NCBI GenBank assembly: GCA_964514545.1
Contig: CAZETR010000011.1
Coordinates: 26,294 to 90,293 of the forward strand
Source: an uncultured Gammaproteobacteria bacterium
GTDB lineage: Bacteria > Patescibacteriota > Microgenomatia > CAZETR01
DNA length: 64,000 nt
Direction of reading: 5' to 3'
In this document: piece by piece, positions 27,472-56,453 of the stretch
How the letters are laid out: every line of letters begins with the position of its first letter
Position numbering within the stretch: position 1 is the first letter of the stretch
Position numbers and translations under genes: made by a program
Notes under the pieces: model-generated
The model's database searches: none
What the model saw: only the letters and a program-made list of their open reading frames with translations
Told to the model about the DNA's origin: nothing

Positions 27472-27473
27472 CG

Positions 27474-29396: not shown

Positions 29397-29426
29397 CGTG
29401 CCGTCTCATCATACATGGTCACCCTT

Positions 29427-31268
29427 TTAACTTGAAACGACCTGTTTTACTTTCTTGGCGGGGTTTCCGACGGCGATAGTATTTTTGGCAATGTTTTTGG
29501 TAACTACACTTCCCGCACCGATAACAGCGTTATTCCCGATTGTAATCCCCTTTAGAATTATCGCATTTGTTCCAATAAAAACATTCTTTCCAACTAGTAC
29601 TTCCCGGGATTTAATGTTTGCTTTGTTGAAGCGGCGATTCGTGCTATCTATCGGATGAAAATCCGTATCGAGAATTATGCTGTTCGCTCCAACCAAAGTC
29701 CCTTCGCCAATATTAATACTTCTTGCGGCACAGATAACTCCACCCGTAATTCCCACGTTGTCGCCGATAGAAATTGATGCTCCTTTTTCCCACGTGGTTA
29801 AGATTAGCGGGTGATTTACTCCAAGAGGATTTGAATATTTCCAATTGCGCACCTCAACTCCATCCCCTATCCTGATGCTACTATTTTTATGTTTCATAAT
29901 TTTGGGAAATCCATACCATTTGGTGTTTTTGCCTACGCTCACTCCCAATGCTTTGAGATAAACCAGAATTAGTGGATGGTAAATCATGCGTTTTATCTCT
30001 AAAGTAACTTTCCACACAGCACCAAAGCCGGTAATTGTTTCTCTAATTTTAGTTATTTCTATTTTTGCTTCTTCTTTTGAAGGCATGAATTCCTTAAGGA
30101 TGAGGAGAACGACTACAAATTGAATTAAGCCCAAGATAGTTAGCATTGGTTCGTAATTAAGAGTGAGGAATACCGGCCCACCTGTTCCTAATCTATATCT
30201 GACCCAGATACTGTAGAGGTGAATAGCAATTGAGAGAAACCAATATAGTCGGATTCTAGGATTCTCGAAAATATAGAATAGAAGAAGGATCGACGCATTG
30301 TAAAAGTGGTTGGCATGGGCCTGGATGACAATCTGGGGCAATAAGACTGAGGATAAGGTGTAAGTGTCAAGCAAGCTACTTCTTTTTCTTAAAATTGAGA
30401 GTGTAATGAAAATAGTCATTATCGTAAGCGTCAAATACAAAGTTATGTCGGTAATTGTGTGACTAAAGTATGGGGTGTAGATAGGGCCTGATTTATGTAC
30501 AATGCTCTGGATTAACCTAACAATTGGGTGCCAAATATTTACTTCCGATCCCACGAGTACGGGAAATGTATTCTTAACTTGTGTCAGTCTCCATGCAAGA
30601 TAAAATATCGATTGGCCGCTTATTTTGAAATAGATTGAAAAGGCAATGAAAGGGACGATAAAGCCGGAAAAATAATTTAGGGCTGCTTCTATGTGCTGAT
30701 GCACAACTTCCTTAAGTACTAGGAAGATAGCTGCTCCAAGAACTAGTGACTGTGCTTGTGGCTTTGCCATAAATGCCAGTCCCAACATTAGTCCTGAGAA
30801 AAAGGCCTTGTGCTTTACCTTTATGAATTCTTGCCAGATGGCGGCAGAGAGAAGAATAAAAAACGCCATAAGTGAGTCCCAGAAACCTTGCCAGGCTGAG
30901 ATTATAATGAACCATGGGTTAAGCCAATATAATCCAAGCATTTGGAGTTTTTTATTCGGGAAAAGAACTAGCAATAACTTAAGTATTGCTAGTTCAAAAA
31001 TTAAATTGGAAACCTTGAAGGGAAGGAACCAAAGACTGGGAATGGTTTTGGCAATACACGCATCTATTCCGTAGAAAATATAGGTAATGGGAAAATAGAC
31101 TCCGTAAAAAGCATTTGAGAGGCCTTTTTCACAGACGTCTTTGCCCCACGCGTAATAAGCGTCTTTCATATCATGCATCCCCTCTACAAATAACCCGGGA
31201 AACCTTAGGGTCAATCCGACGGCAAAAAGAAGGCCAAGTAAGATTGTTTTGTTGTATCTACGCTTCAT
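29427..31268 (-). CDS. Fusion protein: N-terminal ~400-aa polytopic membrane (GT-C-like) domain plus C-terminal left-handed β-helix (hexapeptide) acetyltransferase domain
   Basis: The C-terminal repeats IRIGDGVEV...ISIGDNVGITGGVIC...INIGEGTLVGANSIIL...VLVGKNVFIGTNAIILKGITIGNNAVIGAGSVV are typical of Mac/LacA-like acetyltransferases. The N-terminus has more than ten hydrophobic helices. Confidence 0.7.
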   Translation of the reverse strand: MKRRYNKTILLGLLFAVGLTLRFPGLFVEGMHDMKDAYYAWGKDVCEKGLSNAFYGVYFPITYIFYGIDACIAKTIPSLWFLPFKVSNLIFELAILKLLLVLFPNKKLQMLGLYWLNPWFIIISAWQGFWDSLMAFFILLSAAIWQEFIKVKHKAFFSGLMLGLAFMAKPQAQSLVLGAAIFLVLKEVVHQHIEAALNYFSGFIVPFIAFSIYFKISGQSIFYLAWRLTQVKNTFPVLVGSEVNIWHPIVRLIQSIVHKSGPIYTPYFSHTITDITLYLTLTIMTIFITLSILRKRSSLLDTYTLSSVLLPQIVIQAHANHFYNASILLLFYIFENPRIRLYWFLSIAIHLYSIWVRYRLGTGGPVFLTLNYEPMLTILGLIQFVVVLLILKEFMPSKEEAKIEITKIRETITGFGAVWKVTLEIKRMIYHPLILVYLKALGVSVGKNTKWYGFPKIMKHKNSSIRIGDGVEVRNWKYSNPLGVNHPLILTTWEKGASISIGDNVGITGGVICAARSINIGEGTLVGANSIILDTDFHPIDSTNRRFNKANIKSREVLVGKNVFIGTNAIILKGITIGNNAVIGAGSVVTKNIAKNTIAVGNPAKKVKQVVSS

Positions 31269-31971
31269 CTGCCCTTAATTTGATTGTGATAATGTCTATA
31301 ATCATCCTTGTTCCAAGTTTGAGAGCCTTTCCAAGTGTCCCAGAGTAAGTGCTCTCTCCGGTGGGTCTCTCTTTGTAGTTAACCGGTATTTGAATTATTG
31401 ATAGATTGTTTTTGCAAGCAAGCACCATCATTTCCAGGCTGAAATCTCCTCCGTTGGCTCTGAATTGTCTTCTAATTTTTTCTAAGGCTTTTTTATGGAT
31501 AATTCGATAGGTGCAACCAACGTCTGAGAGTGAAACTGTGTTGAATAAAAACTGGACTAATTTTGCGACAACGTAGTTTCCCCATTTGAGTAAAAATCCC
31601 ATGTTCGCCCCTTCCCAAATCAATTCCTGCACTGTTCTTGTTCCAATTACGAATTGAAACTCCTTGCTGTAGCTTAGAAGTTTGAATATATCATTAGCTA
31701 CAAACGTACCGTCAGGTTCACAGATTACGATTAGGTCCCCTTTTGCCACCCTTAATCCTTTTTGAATTGCAGCGCCATATCCCTGTTTGACTTCTGGTAC
31801 CACCTTTGCACTTGTCCCTGCGGTCGTTTTTAAAACATCAAACGTGGCGTTATTATCGATAATAATAATTTCATCTATGGCTCTGGTCTTCTCGAAGTCG
31901 AGAATGCTTTTGCGAAGAGTAGCCCGCTCGTTATATGTTGGCATAACGAGTGAAAGTTTAAGTTGTTTCAT
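31258..31971 (-). CDS. GT2 polyprenyl-phosphate sugar synthase-like (Dpm1/ArnC/GtrB-type)
   Basis: LSLVMPTYNERATL... DxD region and a small single-domain GT2 typical of Dol-P/Und-P-hexose synthases. Confidence 0.8.
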   Translation of the reverse strand: MKQLKLSLVMPTYNERATLRKSILDFEKTRAIDEIIIIDNNATFDVLKTTAGTSAKVVPEVKQGYGAAIQKGLRVAKGDLIVICEPDGTFVANDIFKLLSYSKEFQFVIGTRTVQELIWEGANMGFLLKWGNYVVAKLVQFLFNTVSLSDVGCTYRIIHKKALEKIRRQFRANGGDFSLEMMVLACKNNLSIIQIPVNYKERPTGESTYSGTLGKALKLGTRMIIDIITIKLRADEA

Positions 31972-32101
31972 CTTTTATAATTTCAGGGTCATTTTTATTT
32001 TATCAGGCTCTTGCTAAAAAAATCCGTGTGTTCTTTATAAACTTGAGTTTTGTTCTTTACAAGTCTTTAGTTGTCGGTTATGTTGGCTGTGAGTTTGTTT
32101 T
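31972..32101. promoter_or_regulatory. Divergent intergenic/promoter region
   Basis: 130-nt AT-rich gap between a head-to-head minus-strand run and the plus-strand epimerase gene. Confidence 0.3.
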
Positions 32102-33106: not shown

Positions 33107-33137
33107 CTGAGAACCCAAGATGTGAATTTTATGATAG

Positions 33138-34928
33138 CTATTTGCTAAAACCGGTAAATTCATAGAGGTATGGTTTTATCTTTCTTGATTTGCAAATGAC
33201 ATCGTTGTTGTTTTTTCTAAAATAATACTTGCCGTCAGAGTCGTCTACTGGCAAATTCTTGTCGCATTCAGAAAGTGAGATTGCGTAAAGTGGTTTAGCC
33301 TTTGAATAAGTTGAGAGCTCATCGCGACTGTGGGAGCAATTGGTCATAAAGATGGAAAATAATGCATCGTAGTTCCCCCAAATTAGCTCCGGGTCTGTAA
33401 CTCTAATTTGAGTGTCAGGATTTACTTCTTCGCACCATTTTATGACTCCTCCCAGTCTGGGAAAGAAAGCACGAGTCCAATCGTAAATATTTATCATGCC
33501 TTTGGCGTAGGCTAGCTCTCTGGGATTTTGCGTATAGGCTAATTTCACTGTATTTAGAGTGTTTATGGAATTGCGATAAATAAATGAGGCCGAGTAAACC
33601 ATAAGTAATAGGGCGAGTGCCTTGGGGAAAAAATGGATTTTTGACAGATTCCAAGACGCGGCCACAAAAAGAATAGTCATCAGTTGCCAATGAATAAAGT
33701 ATCTGGGTTCAAAAGCCGTAAATTTTGATGAGATTGTCCAGTCAAGAGCTAAAATAGACGTTAATAAGAGCGTGAATTTAACTGATTTCCTGTTCCGGTG
33801 AATGAGGAGAAGAATTAGGGAAATTAATAATAATTTTTCGATACTTAGAAATTGATTGAAAAGTAAAGACTTTATCTTGCTTAGATTGCTAAGGGTAATA
33901 GGAGTGGTCCAGCTGCCAAAAATGTCTGTTTTCTTAGGACATGTTTTACAGGCAAAAATTAATGGATAAACCGGATTCTTGTACAGAACCGCGTTTTTAA
34001 TATACCAGTATCCTCCAAACAGAGAAAAAATTACTAAACATGATATTAACGTGTTTCTTCTAACCGCTTTAAAATCTACAAGTAAACTTATTAGAAAAAT
34101 TGAGATTGCGCTGGAAAGAACTGAGTACTTCATGCCTACCGCCAAGGCGATAAAGCCGACTCTTCCTGCTAGTGAATTTTTGTAAAAAAAGGTGAGCAGG
34201 GCCAAAATTATAAATGCAGCGGCTGCCACGTCGACGTAACCGGATGTACTTAAAGTGAGAATGTCGGGACTGAAAAATAGGATGCCGATGTACCCTCCTG
34301 CTGCCGAGAGAGTTCCAATGTTCTCCTTTAAACAGAAGTAAACTGTAGCTGCCGCAGTTAAAAAGATCAGGAATTGCAGCAGCCTGGCCGATGCGTACGT
34401 CTTGGTTAATACAAATAGGCCCAAGGCCGCGGTTTCAAGTGATCTGGGCATACTTGAGTAGAGTCCGCCTGACAGATTCCACGATTTTTCAAAAGTAATA
34501 GTTGATGGGGACTGCCAGTGATAGGCCATTTCATCCCACATGTACGGTGGAAGAGAGAGCTTTGTAAATATTGGCTTTGCGATGATTACCAAGGGAAGCA
34601 GTAGCACTACGACATCAGGCAATATTTGTTTGAATGAAATATTAAGTTTAATCCTCGAGATTTTGGTTTTATAAAAGCAGAAGAGAAAAATCGGTAAATA
34701 TAAATCTAAAACCGTGGTCGGCTTTAGGGGATAAAAAAGGTGACCTACGTAAACCGCGAGTGTCCAAATAGCTAGGCCAAAGGTCCACCTGGTGAGCAAA
34801 AGAGCCGAGGGAAGTTTGATAAATTTCTTATCGATCCAGGTACCGACAACAAACCAGGAGAGAAAAAGTGCAAAATAAACTAAGAGGTTAAAGAAATTTA
34901 GAGGTTGAAAATAATCGAGGAGTGTCAT
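33138..34928 (-). CDS. Large polytopic membrane protein, PPY-DEM-YH family paralog 3 (putative GT-C-like)
   Basis: LSLPPYMWDEMAYHW, LTKTYASARLL, SGYVDV. Shorter C-terminal domain than paralogs 1 and 2. Confidence 0.6.
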   Translation of the reverse strand: MTLLDYFQPLNFFNLLVYFALFLSWFVVGTWIDKKFIKLPSALLLTRWTFGLAIWTLAVYVGHLFYPLKPTTVLDLYLPIFLFCFYKTKISRIKLNISFKQILPDVVVLLLPLVIIAKPIFTKLSLPPYMWDEMAYHWQSPSTITFEKSWNLSGGLYSSMPRSLETAALGLFVLTKTYASARLLQFLIFLTAAATVYFCLKENIGTLSAAGGYIGILFFSPDILTLSTSGYVDVAAAAFIILALLTFFYKNSLAGRVGFIALAVGMKYSVLSSAISIFLISLLVDFKAVRRNTLISCLVIFSLFGGYWYIKNAVLYKNPVYPLIFACKTCPKKTDIFGSWTTPITLSNLSKIKSLLFNQFLSIEKLLLISLILLLIHRNRKSVKFTLLLTSILALDWTISSKFTAFEPRYFIHWQLMTILFVAASWNLSKIHFFPKALALLLMVYSASFIYRNSINTLNTVKLAYTQNPRELAYAKGMINIYDWTRAFFPRLGGVIKWCEEVNPDTQIRVTDPELIWGNYDALFSIFMTNCSHSRDELSTYSKAKPLYAISLSECDKNLPVDDSDGKYYFRKNNNDVICKSRKIKPYLYEFTGFSK

Positions 34929-35695
34929 GGGGAGTTTGTAATGATAAGATGAGATGGAATAATTCCAAGAGTCATATAAATTATTACCCTGAATTTATTT
35001 CCTGGAAGCATTTTTACAATATCTTTTACGTACAACGGATTTAGGTTTGAATTTGAGGACCAGAATGACTTGCCTGTAAATTTACATAGAAACCGAAAAA
35101 TTTTGAGAGGAAGCCAGTGGAGAAAGAAAAATCCTGTATGTGGCTCATAAATACAACCTCTGTAAGGAGTCGTGATAAATATTTTTTTCCCAACTCGAGC
35201 TATTTCTCTTATAAATTTTGCTTGTTTGGTAAAGTTTCCTACATGCTCCAATGTTGCCCATGCTGTGGCGATATCAAATTGATTTGATTTAAACGGTAAC
35301 CTTACATTAGGTTCTATTCTAATAATTTTAATCTTCGGATATTTTTTCTTTATTTCTGAATAGTCTTCGACCGCAAGGGCCGTAATTTGTGATGGGTATG
35401 GATAGTGTTTCTCAAAATAATTTGCATCTACCATGTCCTCAGTTGGTGAGATCCCTATGTCTATAACGGTTTCGTCTGGTTTCGGTTTGTACTCACGAAG
35501 TAAGAGATTTAGCTGCTCCTTTCTGACTCGCAGAGACAAGTGACTCAAGAATCTCTTCGTGATGCCGACTTTGTTTTCCGGATTTGTAGTCCAAGTGGAA
35601 GCATTGTACTGACTCATCAAAGTTAACCTTTGTACGTTTTGAATAACTTGCTTTCCTTCAGAATGAAGCTGATATCTCTTAGTCCATCTCTCCAT
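34925..35695 (-). CDS. Class I SAM-dependent methyltransferase
   Basis: VIDIGISPTE and FDIATAWATLEHV (Methyltransf_11-like). An alternative start at 35617 would remove the 72-nt overlap. Confidence 0.6.
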   Translation of the reverse strand: MERWTKRYQLHSEGKQVIQNVQRLTLMSQYNASTWTTNPENKVGITKRFLSHLSLRVRKEQLNLLLREYKPKPDETVIDIGISPTEDMVDANYFEKHYPYPSQITALAVEDYSEIKKKYPKIKIIRIEPNVRLPFKSNQFDIATAWATLEHVGNFTKQAKFIREIARVGKKIFITTPYRGCIYEPHTGFFFLHWLPLKIFRFLCKFTGKSFWSSNSNLNPLYVKDIVKMLPGNKFRVIIYMTLGIIPSHLIITNSP

Positions 35696-36348
35696 TGATT
35701 AAGGTTGGATTTTCTGATTCTTCCATCAGGGTGGTAAGTTATGGGAACTTCCTTTAAACTTACGCCTGCTTGCCTGGCTTTGATCGTTGTTTCAGGGCCG
35801 AATTCCATTCCGGGTGAAGAGAGATTCATTTTTTGGAAGGCATTCTTCGAAAATGCCTTCATGCCACAGCAAAGATCGCTAATATGTGTCGAGCAGAAAA
35901 GATTAGCTGTCAAGGTCAATACGGGATTTCCGATATACTGGTGCGACCAGGGCATGGAACCGGGCAGAATTTTGCCTTTGTACCTGCTCCCCATCACAAC
36001 GTCATATCCTTCTCTTAGAAGTCTTATAAATCTGTCTATCTCGACTGGATCATAGCTACCATCAGCGTCTAGTTTAAGTAAATATTTGCCTTTTGCTTTT
36101 TTTAGCCCAGTGATGCAGGCATTGCCGTATCCCCTATTTCTTTCGATAATTATCCGGGCTCCGAGTTTTTTGGCAATCTCTTTTGACTTATCTGATGAAT
36201 TATTATCGCAGACAACTACTTCTCCGTTAATTTTGTGTTTCTTAAGAGCTTTAAAGCAATTTTTTACACAATTTCCGATGGTTCTCTCTTCGTTAAGACA
36301 TGGCATGACCAAGGATAGTTCAATGTTTTTTTTACTCGGTTTTTCCAC
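35623..36348 (-). CDS. GT2 polyprenyl-phosphate sugar synthase-like (Dpm1-type)
   Basis: ELSLVMPCLNEERTI...VVCDNNSSDKS...LKLDADGSYDP. Confidence 0.8.
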   Translation of the reverse strand: MEKPSKKNIELSLVMPCLNEERTIGNCVKNCFKALKKHKINGEVVVCDNNSSDKSKEIAKKLGARIIIERNRGYGNACITGLKKAKGKYLLKLDADGSYDPVEIDRFIRLLREGYDVVMGSRYKGKILPGSMPWSHQYIGNPVLTLTANLFCSTHISDLCCGMKAFSKNAFQKMNLSSPGMEFGPETTIKARQAGVSLKEVPITYHPDGRIRKSNLNQWRDGLRDISFILKESKLFKTYKG

Positions 36349-36385
36349 AGTTTAAGATTATTACCTTTTATTTGCTGTGTGGCAA

Positions 36386-37375
36386 TTACTTCTTTTTATA
36401 TCCCGAAGGATGCAAACTCATCCATCTCCAGGCAGTATTGATTATTTCCTGAGCGCTTGAGCGCTTTGGCTGCCAATTGAGCTCTGAAATGGCCTTGGAA
36501 GAATTGGCAATGAGGCGGGCAGGGTCGCCGGCTCGACGGTTGGTGATAGTAAAAGGAATCTTTTTACCGGTGACTTGTGAGGAGATCGCTATTATTTTTT
36601 TGACGCTAATTCCCTTCTGGTTTCCTAAATTAAACACGGAGTTTGGCAATCGGTCAAACTTGGAGATGGCAGAGATATGTGCCTGGGCAATGTCGATTAC
36701 ATGGACATAATCCCGCAGGCAAGATCCATCTGGGGTGTTGTAGTCATCCCCGAAAATACTAACTTGGTCTCTTTTGTTTTGAGCAACTTCCAGAACTAAT
36801 GGGATAAGGTGGGTCTCGGGACGGTGAAATTCACCATGAGTTTTACTGGCCCCGGCTGCATTAAAATATCTGAAAGTAAAATATTGTAAGCTGTGGGCTG
36901 AGGCATAATGCCTAAGAATCTGCTCAAACATGAGCTTGGACTCGCCATAAGCGTTTAGAGGTCCTTTGATCGCGTCCTCCGATATTGGCGATTGTCTAGT
37001 TTCTCCGTAGACCGCGGCGGTGGAGGAAAAAATGATTTGCTTGCATCCGTATTTAAGCATTGAATTAAGTAAAGTGATTCCGTTGGAGAGGTTGTTTTCG
37101 AAATACAGATGAGGGTGGGTGTTGGCTTTGCCAACTTCTGTCTCGGCGGCAAAGTGGATGACTGTTTGAACACTGTAACGCTTAAAGATCGAGTTAAGTA
37201 AAGACTGCTTGCCAATATTTCCCCGAACGAAAACAGCATCTGGGTCAACGGCTTGTCTGTGGCCGGTTTGCAGGTTGTCGATAACTATCGTTTTAAATCT
37301 CTTTTTGATGAGCATTTCCACACAGACTGATCCTATAAAACCTGCCCCGCCTGTCACTAGCACGGTCTTTTTCAT
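36386..37375 (-). CDS. galE: UDP-glucose 4-epimerase
   Basis: VLVTGGAGFIGS, FSSTAAVYGE and YGESK catalytic region; 329 aa. Confidence 0.85.
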   Translation of the reverse strand: MKKTVLVTGGAGFIGSVCVEMLIKKRFKTIVIDNLQTGHRQAVDPDAVFVRGNIGKQSLLNSIFKRYSVQTVIHFAAETEVGKANTHPHLYFENNLSNGITLLNSMLKYGCKQIIFSSTAAVYGETRQSPISEDAIKGPLNAYGESKLMFEQILRHYASAHSLQYFTFRYFNAAGASKTHGEFHRPETHLIPLVLEVAQNKRDQVSIFGDDYNTPDGSCLRDYVHVIDIAQAHISAISKFDRLPNSVFNLGNQKGISVKKIIAISSQVTGKKIPFTITNRRAGDPARLIANSSKAISELNWQPKRSSAQEIINTAWRWMSLHPSGYKKK

Positions 37376-38178
37376 TACCGAGGTTTGATTACTTTCAAGT
37401 AAAGATTGAACATTTTAAACCCGATTCCGTTTTTAAAATCAATTGGCAGATTATTTCTCAATTTCATGTAACTGGCCCACTTGTTCTGTCGGTTTATCTT
37501 TTGGTTCGTGGAGCTGCCAATTTCATAGCGAAACTTTACCAGTTTCTTCGGAATAAGTTTAATCTGATGACTTTTTAGAATATGCGTGTACATTCCCCAG
37601 TCTTCCCCTCCTCTGCGATATTCATAGTCAAATCGATATTTGTTAACTGCGCTTCGTCTAAAAATTGAGTGGGAAAGTTGGCAGACCCAAAAAAAATCTT
37701 TTGATATATATCCGCTGTTGAAAATAAAATTTATGCTAAGCGCAAGCTGTCGAGCTAAGTTGATCAGCGATACTTTGAGCTTCTCAGCTAAAGGATATGG
37801 ACCGTAGAAATAGGGTTTGATGAGGCACATGGTTCCCATACAGGCGGGATTTGCAAATGCCTTTAGAGAAGCAACTAAAAAGCCGGGCTCCCATTGATCA
37901 TCTGAGTCAAGAAATGCAATCAATTTTCCTGCAGCATGTTTTATTCCGGTGTTTCTAGAACCCCCGGGTCCTTCTTCGTTCGTATTGGGTACAATTTTTA
38001 CTTTTGGATATCTTTTCTTGATGACGTTTTTGGGATAATCTAGGTTGTTGTCGATAACCAAAATTACCTCGATTTTCTCCAGTGGGACTTTTTGTAAATA
38101 TATAGACTGAATTGCTTGAATTGCATATTCAGGTCTGTGTTTATCAGGAATTATTACTGAGATATAAGCTTGCGTCAT
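37375..38178 (-). CDS. Glycosyltransferase family 2
   Basis: ISVIIP...GGSRNTGIKHAAGKLIAFLDSDDQW (DxD). Confidence 0.75.
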   Translation of the reverse strand: MTQAYISVIIPDKHRPEYAIQAIQSIYLQKVPLEKIEVILVIDNNLDYPKNVIKKRYPKVKIVPNTNEEGPGGSRNTGIKHAAGKLIAFLDSDDQWEPGFLVASLKAFANPACMGTMCLIKPYFYGPYPLAEKLKVSLINLARQLALSINFIFNSGYISKDFFWVCQLSHSIFRRSAVNKYRFDYEYRRGGEDWGMYTHILKSHQIKLIPKKLVKFRYEIGSSTNQKINRQNKWASYMKLRNNLPIDFKNGIGFKMFNLYLKVIKPR

Positions 38179-39461: not shown

Positions 39462-39462
39462 A

Positions 39463-40350: not shown

Positions 40351-40394
40351 CCGTTATATTGATTTTGTTTTATCGATCGGTTATATAGAGTTCA

Positions 40395-43218: not shown

Positions 43219-43231
43219 TTTTTTTAATGTT

Positions 43232-44203: not shown

Positions 44204-44207
44204 TCCG

Positions 44208-44951: not shown

Positions 44952-45686
44952 TTTGAAGTTGGGATCTTTAGAAGCTAGTTCGTAGGCTTGGTCAAATTGA
45001 CTAATAGTTTCCCGAAGTCTGCGGTTGGAAAATGATTGGCGCAGGACCTCCGGCGTTACGGTAACTATATGAGCTCCAAGGGAAAAGGCCTGTCTTATCT
45101 GCTCGGCAGTCCTGATGCTGCCAACAATGACGCGGACATTGCGATGGTTCCTGGTAACCAAGTAAGCAAGGGTTGACTCAAGAACGGCCTCTGGTCCAGG
45201 GCCTTGGTCATATTTTTCATGGCTCTCTTGAGTCCTGGCCCAAAAGAGGCTAATAAAATTGGCGCCGGCGTCAGCTGCGAGAGCTAGTTGTGAAAAAACT
45301 AAACCCAGGGTGGCGTTAACTGGAATATTACGTTTTCTTAGCTCTGGTATAACCTTTAACCATTTAAAATCTGGAGCCAACGGTACTTTAACGACTGCGT
45401 TGGAGGGATGTGCGTCTGCGTATTTAACTCCCAGGTCTACCATTTGTCTAGCCGTCATCTTGGTACTGGGAATTTCGACTGACACCGGAAAACCTGGTCC
45501 AACTATTTGACAAATTTCATTTAGTCGGGCCGGAATATCTAGGACTCCGTCTTTTAGAAGTATGACCGGGTTCGTGGTGAGCCCGGTAAGGACAGCCCTC
45601 CATCTTTTTATTTGCTCAGGGTCGCTTGAGTCAAGGAAGTGGCCGGAGACGTTAACTTCTGGTCTTAGGATTTCTGTGTTTGTCAT
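44943..45686 (-). CDS. Transaldolase-family protein (Fsa/TalC-like)
   Basis: LDSSDPEQIKRW...GLTTNPVIL and VVKVP...NATLGLVFSQ match transaldolase/FSA motifs. Confidence 0.7.
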   Translation of the reverse strand: MTNTEILRPEVNVSGHFLDSSDPEQIKRWRAVLTGLTTNPVILLKDGVLDIPARLNEICQIVGPGFPVSVEIPSTKMTARQMVDLGVKYADAHPSNAVVKVPLAPDFKWLKVIPELRKRNIPVNATLGLVFSQLALAADAGANFISLFWARTQESHEKYDQGPGPEAVLESTLAYLVTRNHRNVRVIVGSIRTAEQIRQAFSLGAHIVTVTPEVLRQSFSNRRLRETISQFDQAYELASKDPNFKLV

Positions 45687-46311
45687 TTATGACACCTGGG
45701 AAATTTTTTATCATATTTTTAAGGGCAAAGATAATGGCATGATGCAGAACGACATGGGTTGCCTCGATCCCAGGTGTTCCGTATGGCTCCGAATTAATTG
45801 GTACTACCAAGCATACGTCTGCCATCTTCATCATGGCTCCCCCATTAAATCCCGCAAAGCCGATTATTTTTGCCTTACGGTCTTTGGCTAGTTTCATCGC
45901 CTGAACCAAGTTTTGCGACCACAGTCCAGCATCTCCCTCGCCTGCCCCGCCGTGGACTGAAAATCCAATCAAAACATCTTTGCTCGTAATCCAGGGGTCA
46001 AGTTGGCCGGCAAAAACGCTCCCCCATCCTTTGTCGTTGGTCCAAGCGCTGACCAATGGAATGTTGTCTACTAAGGAAATTGCCCTAAGCCCTTTTTTGC
46101 CGTCTGCCATGACGGTTTTTGCCAGGTCTGCTGCAAAATGTGTGGCTGTGGAAGCTGACCCTCCGCATCCCATGGTAAAAATGGTGCCTGAATTTTTCCA
46201 TGTTTCAAAAAGAATGTTTATAACTTTTTGAAGGTCATCATTTGACGAAAAGTGGATGGCTGATTTGACTATTTCAAAAAAATACCCGCTTAGTGAAAAG
46301 CTATTATCCAT
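45652..46311 (-). CDS. SIS-domain sugar-phosphate isomerase, GmhA-like (sedoheptulose-7-phosphate isomerase family)
   Basis: IFTMGCGGSASTATHFAADL matches GmhA GNGGSAADAQHFAAEL; about 200 aa. Confidence 0.75.
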   Translation of the reverse strand: MDNSFSLSGYFFEIVKSAIHFSSNDDLQKVINILFETWKNSGTIFTMGCGGSASTATHFAADLAKTVMADGKKGLRAISLVDNIPLVSAWTNDKGWGSVFAGQLDPWITSKDVLIGFSVHGGAGEGDAGLWSQNLVQAMKLAKDRKAKIIGFAGFNGGAMMKMADVCLVVPINSEPYGTPGIEATHVVLHHAIIFALKNMIKNFPGVINDKHRNPKTRS

Positions 46312-46389
46312 TTCCTGGGGCAGGATATGAAACTTTTATTCTATTGGAAATTGGTTGTCAATTAGCAAAGTATTGTATATCATGCCGAT

Positions 46390-47832
46390 ATGTTCAAAAA
46401 TGCGTGGTTTGATTCAATTGCGGCAAATCGGGACGAATGGATAAAGAGGAATTCTTATTATTACGGCTTTATAGAAAACTTAGTGAAATTCTACGTTCCT
46501 GGGGAGGCAAGTGTACTTGAAGTCGGTTGCGGAACCGGAAACTTGATCGGAAAACTAAAAAATAAAATGCGCGTTGGGGTTGACGTTAGCCGGGAAATGC
46601 TTAAAATTGCTAACCGGCACGCGAGAGGCGTTAAGTATATAAGAGCAGACGTGGAAGATGAAGCGGTTGGCGGAAAATATGACTGGGTTTTGGCTGTCAA
46701 CTTGGTTGGATATCTGTCAGATGTTTACAAAGCCTTTGAAAAACTAAAATTGAATTGTATGTCTGACTCGCGAGTCTTGGTTATAACCTACAACCACTTG
46801 TGGGAACCGATCTTAAAACTTGGAGAATTGCTCGGTCTTAGGTCGAAACAACCGGAACAAAACTGGCTTGGAGTCGATGATGTGAAGAATATTTTTTCTG
46901 CAATTGGCTTTGAACTTGTTCAGACAGACTTTAGGTTACTTGTTCCGTTCGACCTGGGGCCAGTTTCCAACCTGATTAACAACCTCTTCGCAAGCTTACC
47001 GGTCATTAGGCATTTTAGCCTATTACAGTGTTTAATTTTCCGACTAGAAAGTCGAACCGAGCGAAATTTGTCCGTTTCCATTATTGTTCCGGCTAGGAAT
47101 GAAGAAGGAAATATTCCAAATATAATCAAACTTCTGCCAAAATTCGGGAAATGGCAGGAAATAATATTTGTCGAGGGGCATTCGAAAGATAGGACGTGGG
47201 AGGAGATAAAGAAAATTTCAAATATCCCATTGAAAATTTCTGAAAATTTATCAAGGGTAAACAAATATCAAAGATCAAATAAATTTGTAGTTAGAGCTTA
47301 TAAACAAAAGGGTATGGGCAAGGCAGATGCGGTTAGATTGGGATTTGAGCAAGCGAAGGGTGAATTGTTGATGGTGATGGATGCTGATTTGACTGTTAGC
47401 CCAGCAGAACTGCTCAAGTTCTATAGCGTAATCTCTCAAGGTAAAGCTGACTTTGCAAATGGCAGTCGGTTGGTCTATCCGATGGAAAAGGAATCAATGA
47501 GGTTTCTAAACAAAGTTGGAAATAAAGTTTTCGGAGTCCTTTTGTCTTTTATCCTGGGACAGTCTTTCAAGGATACTCTGTGTGGTATGAAGGCTCTACT
47601 AAAGAAAGACTATGACAAGATTAAAAGAGGCCGAGCTTTTTTCGGTGATTTTGACCCTTTTGGCGATTTTGATTTGATTTTCGGTGCTGCGAAATTGAGT
47701 TTAAAGATTCTGGAAATACCTGTCAGGTACTGGGAAAGAAAGTATGGGGCAACTAATATTAACCGTTTTAAGCACGGGTTGATGTTGCTGCGGATGACCT
47801 TCTTTGCATTTACAAAATTTGTGTTTTACTAG
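46390..47832 (+). CDS. Bifunctional fusion: N-terminal SAM methyltransferase plus C-terminal GT2 (Dpm1-like)
   Basis: N-terminal LEVGCGTGNLIGKL SAM motif. C-terminal SVSIIVPARNEEGNI...MVMDADLT GT2 core, followed by a hydrophobic tail. Confidence 0.75.
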   Translation: MFKNAWFDSIAANRDEWIKRNSYYYGFIENLVKFYVPGEASVLEVGCGTGNLIGKLKNKMRVGVDVSREMLKIANRHARGVKYIRADVEDEAVGGKYDWVLAVNLVGYLSDVYKAFEKLKLNCMSDSRVLVITYNHLWEPILKLGELLGLRSKQPEQNWLGVDDVKNIFSAIGFELVQTDFRLLVPFDLGPVSNLINNLFASLPVIRHFSLLQCLIFRLESRTERNLSVSIIVPARNEEGNIPNIIKLLPKFGKWQEIIFVEGHSKDRTWEEIKKISNIPLKISENLSRVNKYQRSNKFVVRAYKQKGMGKADAVRLGFEQAKGELLMVMDADLTVSPAELLKFYSVISQGKADFANGSRLVYPMEKESMRFLNKVGNKVFGVLLSFILGQSFKDTLCGMKALLKKDYDKIKRGRAFFGDFDPFGDFDLIFGAAKLSLKILEIPVRYWERKYGATNINRFKHGLMLLRMTFFAFTKFVFY

Positions 47833-49381
47833 ACACGCATTGCGGTTGCTTGAGAAGAAGCATTTTAGTTCCGGAGATTCGTTCGAATGGAGTTGATTTA
47901 TATTGGGGATTGGCAGTAATAAAATCACTGTACGAGACTTGCTGAATATAGAGGGCGTTCCAGCACAAATTGTCTATGGGCACGGAGTTTCCATTGTGAT
48001 CCCCTACGAATGAAAGGTTTTCTAAATCGTATAGATACGGATAGGTTCTGGCTAATTGAGCCGCATTAAACCTTCCGGCCCAAACTCGGCTCCACAATAA
48101 GGAGAATGGTTTTGACTTACCGTATTCCCAAATTGCCGGTCCATCTATTTTTTGAGTTGAAACAAAGACTTCCAAGGCTGCCGAATTTTCAACTTCCTCC
48201 CGGACGTTTACTGATTGACGAGAAATCGTTGATATCGCCAATATTATTGATACGATTAGAACAAGTTGTCGTAGTGATGTGGACAAAGACTTGAAAATCA
48301 ATAATATGGCCGTAATGGTTAAAAAAAGATTTACAGTTTGGTAATAATCCTGGGGGTATTTAAAAAATGCTAACCAGCCGAGGATTGATAATCCAAGTAA
48401 CAAACCAGGGGTTCGGCTGTTGGTAAATTTTCGTGAGAATAGAACAGCTATTGCAGTTAAGACTAGGAGAAATAACCATGGGGTTGACCTTAAACCGGCT
48501 GTGGCGTGAACTGTCCAGCTAGCAATGTCGAGAACTTTAGTCTCTCCCCCACCGTAAACTCCAGCATGGCTAAACAAGGCAATGGCCCATCGGAAAATTT
48601 GTGAGTATCTGTCGTGAATTGGCCAGGTGGTTACGATGAAACCGAGTGCAATTAAGAGTGAGTCCATGGCTACCCTTAAAACAACATTGAAGATTGCTTT
48701 CTTGCTTTTTACCGCCCTGGAAAATCCCAGCGCTAAGGTAATCGGAATTATTGTAATTGAGGTAAATTTGCTAGCAAGCATTACGCCTGAACAAAGTGCC
48801 ATTAATCTCATAGGGAAATCTAATTTATCTCTATGCCAGACGGAGTAGAGAACCAGCCAGATTGAGAAAAGAAGAAATAGCATGTTTTCGGCTCTTATTG
48901 AGACTGGAATAACTGTAAATGGGTAAAACGATAATAGAATGGCTATTCCAATTAACGAAGTTGTTCTTGATTCTGAAATTGCGAACCATCCGCACAGTGT
49001 CAAATAAATACTGAAAACGAAGATCACAGATATAAATCCACGGCTATACCATAGAAGTAAATCGATGTTTACAGTGCTCCATTCTAGAAATGAGGTGTGG
49101 TGAATTTTTGCCCATACTCTGAGAGGCCAATAAGAAGACCCAAGGAACATATGGAGCGGAGTACCGGGGTGATTCGTGTAGGAAATTTGACCTATTGTTA
49201 TCCACTCCACTGCGTTACTAACGTAGTGAATGTCAGGGTCAATTGAATAGAACGGACTGGTTGGCCTTGTAATAATCGGTGAAACTAGGATAGCTGTTAT
49301 GACCAGGGACGCTAATAAAAAGAGTGCCCTAATCCTGAAGGAGGGGAAAACAACGTTTTTAATTCCCTCAACGGTCTTCAT
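47810..49381 (-). CDS. Polytopic membrane protein, possible GT-C-like
   Basis: 523 aa with more than ten hydrophobic segments and an early loop IDPDIHYVSNAVEW. Located inside the GT2 / GT-C block. Confidence 0.45.
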   Translation of the reverse strand: MKTVEGIKNVVFPSFRIRALFLLASLVITAILVSPIITRPTSPFYSIDPDIHYVSNAVEWITIGQISYTNHPGTPLHMFLGSSYWPLRVWAKIHHTSFLEWSTVNIDLLLWYSRGFISVIFVFSIYLTLCGWFAISESRTTSLIGIAILLSFYPFTVIPVSIRAENMLFLLFSIWLVLYSVWHRDKLDFPMRLMALCSGVMLASKFTSITIIPITLALGFSRAVKSKKAIFNVVLRVAMDSLLIALGFIVTTWPIHDRYSQIFRWAIALFSHAGVYGGGETKVLDIASWTVHATAGLRSTPWLFLLVLTAIAVLFSRKFTNSRTPGLLLGLSILGWLAFFKYPQDYYQTVNLFLTITAILLIFKSLSTSLRQLVLIVSIILAISTISRQSVNVREEVENSAALEVFVSTQKIDGPAIWEYGKSKPFSLLWSRVWAGRFNAAQLARTYPYLYDLENLSFVGDHNGNSVPIDNLCWNALYIQQVSYSDFITANPQYKSTPFERISGTKMLLLKQPQCVSSKTQIL

Positions 49382-50181
49382 AAAATTGGTTTGATTGTTC
49401 TTTGCAAACTGTATATCGGAAGAATAAGTATTTTTGTGTGCAAATAGTGGAGAATTAACAAAATTTTATTATTGGTTTGGCCTCTGGCAATTTCTAGTTG
49501 CTCTTTAAACTGCTCCTTGAAATAATTAGTACTTTTTGAAAACCGGTGTTTGCGAAAAACAGATAGATAAGATTTAATAATTCGGGGCTTGCTCAACTGG
49601 CTTAATCTCAGCCAGTAGTCGTAGTCAAAGGCGAATTTGTATTTGGGATTGAATAGTCCAATCTTGTCGACTACTTCTCTTCTCCAGAAAGTTGAGGGTT
49701 GGGGAATCATGTTGAGAATTAGCTGAAAGAGGCGCGAGTAAAAAAGTAGTGAAAAATGGACGTAAGTTGTAATTAACGTACTTCTTGGATGTCTGCCGTT
49801 GAGTAAAACTTTATAGAAACCTGTTACCCAGAGATTTTTTGGGTGATTTTCAAATTCTATGGCAATCTTTTGCAGAGTTCCGGGAAGATAAAAGTCGTCG
49901 GAGTTAAGATAGCCAATTATCTTTCCTGTTGCAACTTTGAGACCTTTGTTCAGCGCATCAACTTGGCCTTTGTCCCTTTCTGATTTCCATCTTATGACTT
50001 TGGGGTGTTTACGGGCGTACCTTTTAATTATTTCAATCGAATTGTCCGTCGATCCTCCATCAAAGATCAGGTATTCTAGGTTTGAGTAATCTTGGTTAAT
50101 GACGCTTTGAATCGTATTATCCAGAAATTTCGCCTGGTTGTACGATGGGGTAATGATTGTAATTTTTGGCCAGGCTTTCAT
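49378..50181 (-). CDS. Glycosyltransferase family 2
   Basis: ITIITPSYNQAKFL...FDGGSTDNS...YLNSDDFY. Confidence 0.8.
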   Translation of the reverse strand: MKAWPKITIITPSYNQAKFLDNTIQSVINQDYSNLEYLIFDGGSTDNSIEIIKRYARKHPKVIRWKSERDKGQVDALNKGLKVATGKIIGYLNSDDFYLPGTLQKIAIEFENHPKNLWVTGFYKVLLNGRHPRSTLITTYVHFSLLFYSRLFQLILNMIPQPSTFWRREVVDKIGLFNPKYKFAFDYDYWLRLSQLSKPRIIKSYLSVFRKHRFSKSTNYFKEQFKEQLEIARGQTNNKILLILHYLHTKILILPIYSLQRTIKPIL

Positions 50182-50183
50182 TA

Positions 50184-50525
50184 CTATTTCTTTTTTCCTT
50201 TGGAGATAACGGTAAACTTGCTGATTAGCTTTTCCATCTCTTTTTTTAGTTCCAGGTGGGAAATATAATTGTTGTAGTTCATAACAGTCAGGATAATGAA
50301 TGCAATTACCATGATAAAGTCCAGGGTCCTGACAAAATGAAACTTCTTGGCAATCGGATCAAGCAACTGAGGGAAAAGTGAGAAGACAATAAAGGAAGAC
50401 CACAGAATTGCCCAGAAAATGAAGCTTTGTTTTAGGATATGCCCTTTTTTGTAATGAATAAGGCCCGCGTAGACCATGAAACATGCGAATGGGACGGTAA
50501 TTAGCTGAACTCCTAAAAGATTCAT
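50184..50525 (-). CDS. Small membrane protein (DUF2304-like, GT2-associated)
   Basis: 113 aa with three or four TM helices. ATGA-coupled downstream of a Dpm1-like GT2, the usual arrangement for DUF2304. Confidence 0.4.
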   Translation of the reverse strand: MNLLGVQLITVPFACFMVYAGLIHYKKGHILKQSFIFWAILWSSFIVFSLFPQLLDPIAKKFHFVRTLDFIMVIAFIILTVMNYNNYISHLELKKEMEKLISKFTVISKGKKK

Positions 50526-51193
50526 CTTCTTTGGGTAATTTTAAATGTCGGAATTGATAAAAAGACTTCAATTGCTTCGAGCAGAGAGACGCCTTTGAAT
50601 TGGTCAAGGTAAATGTTTTCTATTGGTATTTCGGTGTATTTTATTCCGGCTGAACCGATTCTGGCAATCATTTCGGTTTCGACACCATAGCGTTCTGACA
50701 CCCATTTTATTTGTCTGTATGCCGAGGAGCGAAATGCCCTGAATCCGCAAAGGAGGTCTTTGACGTAGATGCCATAGATACCGGAGACCAGAATCGCTGC
50801 GACCCTGTTTCCTAATTTGCGAACAATTGGTACTGGGTGGTGGCCGGTTCTAATACCAATTGCAACGTTGTATTTTTTGAGGGCCTTGATAAATTTAGAA
50901 ATGTGAGAAGGTTTGTGCTGACCGTCTGCGTCAAAGGTAATAATCGCCTTAGCTCCGACGGAAATTGCGTATTCAATCCCCTTCCTTAACGCATATCCTT
51001 TACCCTTATTAAGGGGGAGTGACATTAGTGTTATTGGCAATTGTCTGGCTATTTTAGGAGTGTTATCGGTTGATCCGTCGTCGACGAGAATAATGTTTTT
51101 GCACTCCTTTCGAACACCCTGAATAACTTCGCGGATGTGTCTTTCTTCATTATAGGCAGGAATAACGACATAGGTATTGGATCTATTTATCAT
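50522..51193 (-). CDS. GT2 polyprenyl-phosphate sugar synthase-like (Dpm1-type)
   Basis: YVVIPAYNEERHI...LVDDGSTDNT...TFDADGQHKP. Confidence 0.8.
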   Translation of the reverse strand: MINRSNTYVVIPAYNEERHIREVIQGVRKECKNIILVDDGSTDNTPKIARQLPITLMSLPLNKGKGYALRKGIEYAISVGAKAIITFDADGQHKPSHISKFIKALKKYNVAIGIRTGHHPVPIVRKLGNRVAAILVSGIYGIYVKDLLCGFRAFRSSAYRQIKWVSERYGVETEMIARIGSAGIKYTEIPIENIYLDQFKGVSLLEAIEVFLSIPTFKITQRR

Positions 51194-52323
51194 GCTACCC
51201 AGTAGCCTCTGGTAAACCTCATCCAGAGGAAAAAGAGCCCTGAGACGGAAATGAGGAAATATACTAGCGTTAGTTTTCTGCGGCTGGAAAAAAACTGTGC
51301 AAGAAGAAGAAATGAAGGGAAACAGACCAGAACATAACGAGGTAGTGATACGAAGCTACCGGTAAGCGTGGGCACGATAAATGCAAGGAGATTGAAAATG
51401 GAATAAGAAAGGCGGTGTTTGACTAGGGAAAAAAACGAGGTGATTAGGAACACTGTTCCGACAATTGCCTCCAAAACAATAGTCGAATAGATATCACTCG
51501 ACCTATCTACCGTTGTTATCATTTTAAAATAGCGCCAGTATACTTGATAGAGCATGATTATTTTTTGACTCCTAAATTCGCCGTAGTGACTCAGTGATCT
51601 GATGAAAATAAATGGGTCGCCTGTGGAGGATTTGAGAAATTGCATATAGTAGATTAGCCCCAGGGGTATTAAACAAATCGCGAGTAGGGAACGAAAACTT
51701 GTCGACGGGTGGTTTTTTCTTTGTGTAAACCATTCAATAATCATCGCGGGAAAGAGGAAAATCCCTACAAATCTGGTTGAGGTAGCCAATAATCCCGCTA
51801 TTCCAGCTAACCACCATTTTTTTCTTCTGGCTCCATAAAAAGTCAAAACTGTTAACAATAAAAAAAGCGATTCGGTGTATACAGCTCCAAAGTAAAAGCT
51901 GGTTGGAAATATCAATATAACTAGCAAGGTAAGCAGGCTAACATTTTTGGTGTAGTCGAGTGCAATTAATTTGTATAAAAAGAATAGGGCCGTGATAAAA
52001 CAAACATTGGAAATTGTAAATCCGGCTAATGCCGAATTCGAATTGAATAAAGGGGAAAGACTTTTTATTAGATTGGGATAAAGCGGAAAAAAGGCCTGTT
52101 CTGCAAGCCTGTAGCCAAATTTTGCAATCCCAAGGTAATGTTCACCGTCAAAGTTTGCGTGGACCCAAAGAAGAGGATTTTTTTCAACTGTTTTCCAGTC
52201 AGTTCCCAATAAGTCATGTTTGAGCTGAAAAAACTTGGGGGCAATGAAGATCAGCGCTATGAGCAGTAATCTCCACGAAATAAAGCCGGCAATAATTCTC
52301 TTTGTGGGTGTGTAAAGAATCAT
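51190..52323 (-). CDS. GT-C-like membrane glycosyltransferase (PIG-V/mannosyltransferase-like), tentative
   Basis: WVHANFDGEHYLGIAKFGY...AFFPLYP resembles PIG-V/GT76-type mannosyltransferase signatures. Multi-pass membrane. Confidence 0.45.
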   Translation of the reverse strand: MILYTPTKRIIAGFISWRLLLIALIFIAPKFFQLKHDLLGTDWKTVEKNPLLWVHANFDGEHYLGIAKFGYRLAEQAFFPLYPNLIKSLSPLFNSNSALAGFTISNVCFITALFFLYKLIALDYTKNVSLLTLLVILIFPTSFYFGAVYTESLFLLLTVLTFYGARRKKWWLAGIAGLLATSTRFVGIFLFPAMIIEWFTQRKNHPSTSFRSLLAICLIPLGLIYYMQFLKSSTGDPFIFIRSLSHYGEFRSQKIIMLYQVYWRYFKMITTVDRSSDIYSTIVLEAIVGTVFLITSFFSLVKHRLSYSIFNLLAFIVPTLTGSFVSLPRYVLVCFPSFLLLAQFFSSRRKLTLVYFLISVSGLFFLWMRFTRGYWVA

Positions 52324-52334
52324 GTTGAGTATGT

Positions 52335-53168
52335 CTAGCGCCAGTCTTGAGCTATTCTTTCTCGCGTCTGCGGATTGTGTTTAAATTCCCAGTATTTTAC
52401 GTAGGCTGATGCTTTGGTTAATCCGCTATAAAAGGCAAAAATAAATCCCGGGAAACCGTCTACGAATCCCAGGTGGCGAACGTAAATGGAAATGAATATT
52501 AACACGGGTGAAAAAATAAAGAACCTAATAAAGCTAATAGGTCCGGTTCCCGGGTTGATTGCGAATAATTCGTGGGCAAAGAGGGTTGAATAACGATTGT
52601 CCTTCGTAATATAGGCTGAAAATGAAGGTGTTGGTAAATGGATTAGTTCGTTTTCTAACCAACCGATTTGTCCGGCTATTTCGATTTGTTCATGGACACT
52701 CGTCTGCGGAAATTTGCCCTTTCTTCGACGGAATAACCTGACTACCGGGTCAGGGTAGTGACCACCCTTCTTGATCCAACGACCGAGAAACTGTTTTTTT
52801 CGCTTGATCCAGTAGCCATCAGCGGCATTCTTTGACTCTATAACTCTTTTTATCTCGTCTGCTAACTGCGGTGAAACCCTTTCATCAGCATCAAGCTGCA
52901 AAACCCAGTCTCCCCTTGCCATACCGATGGCCTTCTGTTTCAGAATATGAAAAAGTGGCTTATTTTCCGTTACGATTGTTCTCGCCCCGAGGTTTTTTGC
53001 AATTTCAACTGTGTGGTCATGCGAATTTCCATCTACTATTACAACCTCTTCTGCAAATTTTTTAACCGAGTCAAGACAGTCAACAATGTTTTGTTCTTCA
53101 TTGAAGGTCGCGAGGCAAACGGAAAGTTTAATTTTAGACCCTGAATAATTCAAATGCTGGTTTGCCAT
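52335..53168 (-). CDS. Glycosyltransferase family 2 with C-terminal membrane anchor
   Basis: LSVCLATFNEE...VIVDGNSHDHT...LQLDADE, followed by two hydrophobic helices. Confidence 0.8.
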   Translation of the reverse strand: MANQHLNYSGSKIKLSVCLATFNEEQNIVDCLDSVKKFAEEVVIVDGNSHDHTVEIAKNLGARTIVTENKPLFHILKQKAIGMARGDWVLQLDADERVSPQLADEIKRVIESKNAADGYWIKRKKQFLGRWIKKGGHYPDPVVRLFRRRKGKFPQTSVHEQIEIAGQIGWLENELIHLPTPSFSAYITKDNRYSTLFAHELFAINPGTGPISFIRFFIFSPVLIFISIYVRHLGFVDGFPGFIFAFYSGLTKASAYVKYWEFKHNPQTRERIAQDWR

Positions 53169-56450: not shown

Positions 56451-56453
56451 GAT

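Follow-up and report, generated by a model that had tools for sequence, protein, structure and literature searches.

Candidate polyprenyl-phosphate-sugar synthases and GT-C-like membrane proteins in a 64-kb glycan locus

The 64-kb stretch of contig CAZETR010000011.1 analysed here (positions 26,294 to 90,293; called the window below, with coordinates counted from its first letter and genes named by their lower coordinate) is likely to be one large cell-envelope glycan locus with several copies of a three-component extracytoplasmic glycosylation scheme. In this scheme a glycosyltransferase family 2 (GT2) enzyme makes a polyprenyl-phosphate (polyprenyl-P) monosaccharide at the inner membrane face, the product is flipped, and a glycosyltransferase of the GT-C fold attaches the sugar to an extracellular glycan or protein (PMC11127046). 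The scheme is also treated in PMC8035078, and three-component systems acting on glycans that depend on ATP-binding cassette (ABC) transporters are established (PMC11127046). We mapped the open reading frames (ORFs) of the window and analysed them by Pfam, NCBIfam and PDB sequence searches, a hydropathy and transmembrane (TM) scan and BLAST. The window is 94% coding and is a glycan locus over its entire length, with nucleotide-sugar enzymes, many methyltransferases, GT4 glycosyltransferases, a DegT aminotransferase and a Wzm/Wzt ABC transporter. An initial annotation had suggested that several distinct synthases of lipid-linked monosaccharide donors are encoded here beside GT-C enzymes; four of its GT2 candidates bear this out, while a fifth, 52335, does not.

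Dpm1-like GT2 enzymes

The GT2s on which the argument rests, with the genes directly associated with them, are the following:

31258-31971, minus strand: Dpm1/AglJ-like GT2, 237 amino acids (aa), E-P-D replacing the DxD motif (PF00535 7.3e-15; AglJ 89 bits over residues 7-209).
35623-36348, minus strand: Dpm1/AglJ-like GT2, 241 aa, DAD motif, no TM segment (PF00535 1.6e-29; AglJ 126 bits over residues 12-235, then dolichyl-phosphate (Dol-P) hexose transferase, PpgS and ArnC; PfDPMS 4e-14 over residues 8-207).
34925-35695, minus strand: S-adenosylmethionine (SAM) methyltransferase between the Dpm1-like GT2 35623 and the GT-C protein 33138 (PF08241 3.6e-6).
46390-47832, plus strand: fusion of a SAM methyltransferase with a Dpm1-like GT2, 480 aa (Pfam methyltransferase at residues 42-118, PF00535 at 230-410; AglJ 90.7 bits; PfDPMS 2.6e-12, and ArnC, over 228-457).
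50522-51193, minus strand: GacI/PpgS-like GT2, 223 aa, DAD motif, no TM anchor, a predicted synthase of a polyprenyl-P sugar, possibly an N-acetylhexosamine (HexNAc) (PF00535 3.8e-26; PpgS 112.6 bits over profile positions 2-216 of 226).
50184-50525, minus strand: small DUF2304 membrane protein, 113 aa, three TM segments by the TM scan, a GacJ/Rv3632-like activator partner (PF10066 58.9 bits against a cut-off of 25.5, E 6.9e-16).
52335-53168, minus strand: GT2 that is not Dpm1-like, 277 aa, DADE motif, hydrophobic C-terminus (best in PDB: GmaR 1.5e-12, and SunS; NCBIfam alignment over residues 15-122 only).
37375-38178, minus strand: conventional GT2, 267 aa (PF00535 2.3e-22; NCBIfam PglI, MftF and WcaA-like, N-terminal half only).
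49378-50181, minus strand: conventional GT2, 267 aa, a member of the conserved cassette (PF00535 4.9e-31; NCBIfam TuaG, PgaC and EpsE, N-terminal half only).

Five of these, 31258, 35623, 46390, 50522 and 52335, had been proposed as Dpm1/ArnC-like GT2s; all five ORFs lie exactly at the proposed coordinates and all five exceed the PF00535 gathering score of 23.3 bits (55.7-103.5 bits; E 7e-15 to 2e-29). We regarded a GT2 as a polyprenyl-P sugar synthase when its best characterised relatives are such synthases and the alignment spans the acceptor, that is C-terminal, half of the catalytic domain, and on this basis 31258, 35623, 50522 and the GT2 half of 46390 keep the proposed assignment. Their top NCBIfam families are AglJ, a haloarchaeal Dol-P hexose transferase, PpgS and ArnC, and in PDB searches by sequence PfDPMS, ArnC and GtrB come out on top; for 50522, PpgS is followed by AglJ, the Dol-P hexose transferase and ArnC, and the order in PDB is ArnC, PfDPMS and GtrB. 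The four align with PfDPMS and ArnC over the full catalytic domain, and coverage including the acceptor half extends over residues 7-209 in 31258, 12-235 in 35623, 302-468 in 46390 (228-457 with ArnC) and 7-211 in 50522. The DAD motif is found in 35623, 46390 and 50522, and 31258 can be aligned over its whole length with PfDPMS and ArnC, the segment 'IPV.Y.ER..GES.YS' included, its ArnC alignment extending to EIPVHHAEREFGESKYS. Pairwise identity among the four is just 24-29%, which fits distinct specificities.

The best relatives of 52335, in contrast, are GT2s with protein or peptide acceptors, the outcome that had been named beforehand as refuting, and we rejected it as a Dpm1-like enzyme since only its N-terminal half aligns and its best PDB matches are GmaR and SunS. 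Its position between the PMT_2 array and the small GT-C gene is kept in related loci. Seven GT2s are split cleanly by NCBIfam into the four Dpm1-like enzymes and 52335, 37375 and 49378; the conventional enzymes 37375 and 49378 were absent from the earlier list, and the GT2 at 2800-3747 is also of the conventional WcaA/TuaG/PglI type. An identification of the small GT2s as glucosyl-3-phosphoglycerate synthase was likewise rejected, such matches spanning the N-terminal half only.

A check for C-terminal TM anchors, which had been put forward together with the original proposal, gave a negative answer: the TM scan finds one in none of the four Dpm1-like GT2s. GtrB, ArnC and PfDPMS have 2-4 TM helices at the C-terminus, unlike the window enzymes, though a relative of 35623 in the syntenic locus L005 (37% identical) shares the PfDPMS architecture with its four C-terminal TM segments.

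The pairing of a GT2 with a DUF2304 protein, described initially as a classic one, is indeed present: the gene for 50184 lies directly downstream of 50522, as in GacI/GacJ and PpgS/Rv3632, and the two genes share 4 nucleotides where 50522 stops and 50184 starts. GacI, described as a putative cytoplasmic glycosyltransferase, makes N-acetylglucosamine-P-undecaprenol (GlcNAc-P-Und), GacJ is a 113-aa DUF2304 protein with three TM segments which binds GacI and lowers its Km for undecaprenyl phosphate (Und-P), and the GacI product is then used by the GT-C enzyme GacL; Rv3632 has the role of GacJ for PpgS (10.1101/180810). The window thus resembles both the GacI/GacJ/GacK/GacL system of Streptococcus pyogenes, which adds the GlcNAc side chain of the group A carbohydrate, and PpgS/Rv3632/Rv3779 of Mycobacterium tuberculosis in having an anchor-less GT2 of about 220-240 aa directly followed by a 113-aa DUF2304 protein with three TM segments, a GT-C protein encoded alongside and a locus for a polymer exported by an ABC transporter. 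It differs in that 50522 scores 112.6 bits against a PpgS equivalog cut-off of 370, that the GT-C partner here is 51190, a 377-aa PIG-V/PMT_2-like protein, and that neither a Wzx (GacK) nor a GtrA-type flippase was found in the window. Among species-representative genomes, 19 of the 23 loci closest to that of the window have DUF2304 immediately downstream of the GacI-like GT2, against 7 of the 57 others, and the same arrangement is seen in loci L002-L007.

A SAM methyltransferase accompanies a Dpm1-like GT2 at two sites of the window, as a fusion in 46390 and as the neighbouring genes 35623/34925 (34925-36348). The counterpart of 46390 is also fused in L005, and in L009 (11225-13093) and L015 (9807-11538) a separate methyltransferase gene stands beside the GT2 gene.

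GT-C-like membrane proteins

More than ten GT-C-like membrane proteins had been proposed, and this number holds, as twelve are supported, with 29427, only a possible GT-C protein, left out of the count: six group B paralogs, the distant relative 61630, 51190 and four proteins that lack a Pfam family (25426, 27474, 33138 and 47810). Most of their genes lie outside the interval of the initial annotation, at 25426-31268 and 53134-64000. The hydropathy scan finds 12 large polytopic proteins, with a 13th cut by the window end. The membrane proteins and the transporter encoded with them are:

53134-61483, minus strand: five tandem group B GT-C paralogs, PMT_2/ArnT-like, of 554, 551, 561, 538 and 574 aa; a D-E pair following the first TM segment is invariant.
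61630-63183, plus strand: distant group B relative, 517 aa, with Q-E at the D-E site (blastp to group B 1e-7 to 7e-9).
63173-64000, plus strand: sixth group B paralog, truncated where the window ends, motif SVDEVSIGYNAYS (blastp to 54795 8.9e-41).
51190-52323, minus strand: small GT-C candidate, 377 aa, at least eight TM segments, directly upstream of the GacI/GacJ-like pair (PMT_2 1.7e-4, below the gathering score).
33138-34928, minus strand: group A membrane protein of predicted GT-C fold, 596 aa (no Pfam match at E<=10; AlphaFold2 (AF2) model).
27474-29396, minus strand: group A paralog of predicted GT-C fold, 640 aa, DE motif present (blastp against 33138 1.3e-47; 42% identity to 25426).
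25426-27471, minus strand: group A paralog of predicted GT-C fold, 681 aa, overlapping the start of Wzm (blastp and alignments).
47810-49381, minus strand: Pfam-less membrane protein of predicted GT-C fold, 523 aa, with D48-P-D50 and H71-P-G-T-P75 motifs (AF2 and Foldseek).
29427-31268, minus strand: fusion of a polytopic membrane domain (about 400 aa) with a WbbJ-like hexapeptide O-acetyltransferase (Hexapep 3e-9; WbbJ 79.8 bits).
23375-25429, minus strand: Wzm/Wzt glycan-export ABC transporter, Wzm at 24614-25429 and Wzt, with a Wzt_C domain, at 23375-24607 (PF01061, PF00005, PF14524; NCBIfam TagH and Wzt matches below cut-off).

The gathering score of a Pfam GT-C family is reached by only three proteins, the PMT_2 matches 54795, 58146 and 59759; the others are joined by paralogy, by the Pfam match of an ortholog or by predicted structure. 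Within group B, 53134, 56454 and 63173 are joined by paralogy, the five tandem proteins being mutual paralogs (BLAST E 1e-40 to 1e-87), and D32 and E33 are invariant in the group B alignment. The distant relative 61630 may be catalytically altered or inactive, given its Q-E. For 51190, the ortholog in L005 has a PF04188 (Mannosyl_trans2) domain and that in L002 is a weak PMT_2 match, and its position upstream of the pair is kept in nine loci.

Neither Pfam nor NCBIfam nor PDB gives a sequence match for group A, and only ten homologs at E<=1e-5 were found in a collection of 5.8 billion proteins, none of them with a Pfam domain. For the Pfam-less membrane proteins, relaxing the Pfam search to E<=10 yielded no further match, profiles of group A, group B and the N-terminal domain of 29427 gave nothing meaningful against PDB, and hhalign comparisons between the membrane-protein groups were non-significant (profiles A1, A6 and A4, each against A2) or reached just 28% probability (A6 against A3). 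Since the alignments are too shallow for hhalign, the fold was examined by structure prediction. The AF2 model of 33138 (predicted local distance difference test score (pLDDT) 79.5, predicted template modelling score (pTM) 0.84) has only GT-C proteins as its top ten Foldseek matches in PDB, with ALG12 (2.1e-5), ArnT (2.8e-4), ALG9, STT3, AftA and PglB among them at a probability of at least 0.99 and TM-scores of 0.34-0.54. The model of 47810 (pLDDT 67.5, pTM 0.77) likewise has GT-C proteins as all of its top 29, including ALG12 (1.7e-4), ArnT (9.4e-4), STT3, PglB, DPY19 and AftB. Both proteins are therefore predicted to have a GT-C fold. This fold of the models counts among the observations, together with the assignment of domains and families and the conserved order of the genes. 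Conserved acidic residues are found near the N-terminal TM module in group B (D32-E33), group A (D132-E133, invariant in a 12-sequence alignment) and 47810 (D48 and D50; D48-P-D50 and H71-P-G-T-P75 are invariant in a 4-sequence alignment), and by the positive-inside rule the loops with these acidic motifs would be extracytoplasmic.

Could group A, 47810 and 29427 have a different role in the envelope, as polytopic polymerases, ligases, flippases or transporters whose predicted folds are like those of GT-C enzymes only on the surface? Such a reading would agree with the missing Pfam and PDB sequence matches, with the non-significant hhalign comparison to group B and with the shallow alignments behind the models (12 sequences for 33138, 4 for 47810). 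We nevertheless think it very improbable, as the top 10 and top 29 structural matches are GT-C proteins only, at probabilities of 0.97-1.0 against at most 0.16 for transporters, the invariant acidic motifs sit in a loop that the positive-inside rule places outside, and group A, 47810 and 29427 each adjoin a Dpm1-like GT2. The family of the 29427 N-terminal domain (169 representatives) shows a weak PMT_2 match in only five of 40 members, and a PDB search by sequence gave no match for the membrane domain. Most homologs of this domain stand alone, at a length of 400-470 aa, and share conserved GxxD, KPQ and HxNH motifs.

Donor synthases and transferases are paired by gene order. One string runs 31258, 29427, 27474, 25426, Wzm and Wzt, so that group A shares it with the transporter, 25426 overlapping the start of Wzm. 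A second consists of a nucleotide-sugar dehydrogenase, a GT2 and GalE (378 bits, exceeding the NCBIfam cut-off), followed by 35623, the methyltransferase and 33138. The third, tightly packed on the minus strand, starts with the five group B genes in tandem, continues with 52335, 51190, 50522, the DUF2304 gene, 49378 and 47810, and converges on 46390. A GT-C transferase or candidate thus adjoins a synthase in several places: 51190 upstream of 50522, 33138 after 35623, and 29427, 27474 and 25426 after 31258.

The C-terminal domain of group A has five invariant cysteines (C330, C499, C531, C555 and C579 in 33138), a pattern that suggests a disulfide-bonded outer domain. A more far-reaching interpretation is that group A founds a new GT-C family, in which three additional N-terminal TM helices precede the catalytic D-E loop and the outer domain is rich in Cys, and which would partner the methyltransferase-coupled Dpm1-like GT2s (adjacent in 35623/34925, fused in 46390), so that some donors would be methylated sugars; the locus would then encode much of what an ultra-small and probably host-dependent cell of the candidate phyla radiation (CPR) needs to build its surface. 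We give this little credence at present and offer it as speculation. To our knowledge no methylated lipid-linked sugar donors have been described for three-component systems.

Proposed scheme and its alternatives

From this arrangement we infer enzymatic activities, sugar identities, the assignment of donors to GT-C proteins and the acceptors as follows. At the cytoplasmic face, 31258, 35623, 50522 and the C-terminal half of 46390 would each transfer one sugar from a nucleotide sugar to polyprenyl phosphate, with 50522 probably forming a complex with 50184, its DUF2304 partner, on the model of GacI/GacJ and PpgS/Rv3632. These polyprenyl-P-sugars would then be flipped across the membrane by a flippase not identified in the window. 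At the outer face, the donors would be used by the GT-C transferases, namely 51190, 47810, the three group A paralogs by 35623 and 31258, and the PMT_2/ArnT-like tandem array. The acceptors may be the polymer exported by Wzm/Wzt, surface proteins, or both.

Several observations weigh against this scheme. A Pfam search over ORFs of at least 150 aa found no GtrA/SMR, ArnE/F, Wzx or MATE flippase in the window, a search of the window for small unannotated ORFs with at least two TM segments found none, and an initiating phosphoglycosyltransferase was looked for in the window and not found; a flippase gene could lie elsewhere in the genome. The NCBIfam equivalog scores of the four GT2s (89-126 bits) fall far below the cut-offs of 325-529, which excludes equivalog membership and makes theirs an assignment to a class, not to an ortholog or a substrate, and their substrates and even their acceptor class are extrapolated from relatives. 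Among the four anchor-less synthases 50522 alone has a membrane partner, the DUF2304 protein, and the E-P-D of 31258, which lines up with the DAD of PfDPMS and ArnC, is a deviation. The Foldseek TM-scores are modest (0.38-0.54), and the model of 47810, with a mean pLDDT of just 67.5, has its D-P-D loop at low confidence. Finally, the window probably comes from a small-genome CPR/Patescibacteria lineage of Microgenomates type, a placement made solely from the nearest named homologs.

Some of these points would also be expected if the anchor-less GT2s were ordinary cytoplasmic transferases that extend a glycan linked to Und-P or undecaprenyl pyrophosphate, as the archaeal Agl GT2s do on Dol-P, with the GT-C proteins using donors made elsewhere or acting as oligosaccharyl or polymer transferases. 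The missing anchors and the low equivalog scores fit this picture, as do the conventional GT2, GT4 and ABC transporter genes for a cytoplasm-built polymer in the same locus and the presence of STT3 and PglB among the structural matches. However, the C-terminal acceptor-binding halves of the four enzymes align specifically with PfDPMS, ArnC and PpgS, whereas the conventional GT2s of the window align only by their N-terminal half. In addition, a DUF2304 partner is known only with Und-P-HexNAc synthases (10.1101/180810), and the characterised PpgS and GacI are also of about 230 aa, the PpgS profile having 226 positions. An ordinary cytoplasmic role for these GT2s therefore appears unlikely to us, and polyprenyl-P sugar synthesis is the assignment that we retain.

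What would the acceptors be then? The GT-C arrays, above all group B, might be protein O-glycosyltransferases for surface, pilus or S-layer proteins, the polysaccharide genes being separate and merely co-located. Group B does match PMT and PMT_2, which are families of protein O-mannosyltransferases, and streptococcal GtrB/GT-C systems are reported to glycosylate Ser/Thr-rich protein regions (PMC12041528). On the other hand, ArnT-like lipid and glycan transferases also fall within PMT_2, group A is in one overlapping gene string with Wzm/Wzt, and no acceptor protein is evident in the window. We consider protein O-glycosylation possible, if rather doubtful, as the purpose of these arrays; it would in any case alter the acceptor alone and leave the donor logic of the three-component scheme unchanged.

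In its logic, a GT2 polyprenyl-P sugar synthase together with a GT-C transferase, the proposed scheme is like GtrA/GtrB/Gtr*, ArnC/ArnE-F/ArnT and PfDPMS/DPM1, and group B is PMT_2/ArnT-like. In contrast to the Gtr and Arn systems, four donor synthases and at least 12 GT-C proteins are encoded in one locus instead of one of each, and no flippase gene is seen in the window. The GT-C repertoires of mycobacterial and corynebacterial envelopes (Emb, Aft, PimE, Mpt and PMT) are similar in combining many GT-C paralogs with few polyprenyl-P donors. AftA, AftB and Emb are among the structural matches of the window proteins, though at the sequence level there is no relationship to mycobacterial GT-C proteins. 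The locus departs from the textbook cases in how many components it combines, in having no TM anchor on any of the four synthases, in the methyltransferase association and in group A, which has a predicted GT-C fold but belongs to no curated family. Since Gram-negative, Gram-positive and mycobacterial systems already offer well-established examples of the mechanism, the finding adds to known biology without altering it.

Related loci and further genes of the window

The nearest named homologs of 50522 are from Candidatus Woesebacteria, Daviesbacteria and other Patescibacteria (44-46% identity). The cassette is kept in at least eight related loci from Woesebacteria, Daviesbacteria, Microgenomates, other Patescibacteria and groundwater metagenomes, where the recurring array consists of runs of two to five PMT_2 paralogs, a 52335-like GT2, the small GT-C gene, the GacI-like GT2, DUF2304, a GT2 and a methyltransferase with a Dpm1-like GT2, fused or adjacent. 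Among the 86 related loci compared, none has counterparts of group A or 29427. The capacity encoded here had been called unusually elaborate for a small genome; elaborate it is, but since equal gene arrays occur in the related loci it is a trait of the lineage and not peculiar to this genome. A search of the accessible literature found no description of such a system for CPR bacteria, which is no more than a weak sign of novelty. Members of the CPR/Patescibacteria are uncultured, have small genomes and presumably attach to a host by way of their surfaces. If the affiliation is true, the devotion of a whole 64-kb window to glycan synthesis would make extracytoplasmic glycosylation a major, lineage-conserved investment. 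The GacI/GacJ-type pair, the methyltransferase-GT2 fusion and the GT-C family that lacks a Pfam model are offered as candidates for biochemistry.

The GacI-like GT2 is also found in archaeal loci (L008, L011, L013, L014 and L016, from metagenome-assembled genomes (MAGs) of Methanosarcinales and Woesearchaeota), in which a polytopic membrane protein of 930-1160 aa is encoded directly upstream of it and takes the place of the GT-C protein of about 380 aa in the patescibacterial cassette. DUF2304 follows the GT2 in four of these five loci and was not detected in L016. Two further loci come from MAGs labelled 'uncultured Gammaproteobacteria': L012 has PMT_2 paralogs, a 52335-like GT2, the small GT-C gene, the GacI-like GT2, DUF2304 and a 49378-like GT2, and L010, which is cut just upstream, has the small GT-C gene and the genes after it up to the 49378-like GT2. 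The labels of both may result from mis-binning or mis-classification. The gene that immediately precedes the GacI-like GT2 in L003 (Daviesbacteria; 9618-9989) encodes a 123-aa protein with a faint EamA match, which lacks a counterpart in the window and is a possible candidate for an ArnE/F-type flippase.

At least six separate methyltransferases are encoded in the locus, among them a tandem MetW-like pair, 4631/5272 (56% identical), and two FkbM-type enzymes (within 3669-6890 and 12690-14785), and the Wzt ATPase (23375-24607) bears a Wzt_C carbohydrate-binding domain. In established O-antigen systems with ABC transporters, Wzt_C together with methyltransferases is a mark of chain termination by terminal methylation. 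There is also a candidate pathway to a nucleoside-diphosphate heptose at 41519-46311 and 8520-8996, with every member below the equivalog cut-offs: a GmhA-like isomerase (45652), an HddA-like GHMP kinase (42232), an RmlA-like nucleotidyltransferase (41519), a fructose-6-phosphate aldolase/transaldolase-like protein (44943) and an adenylyltransferase resembling RfaE domain II (8520).

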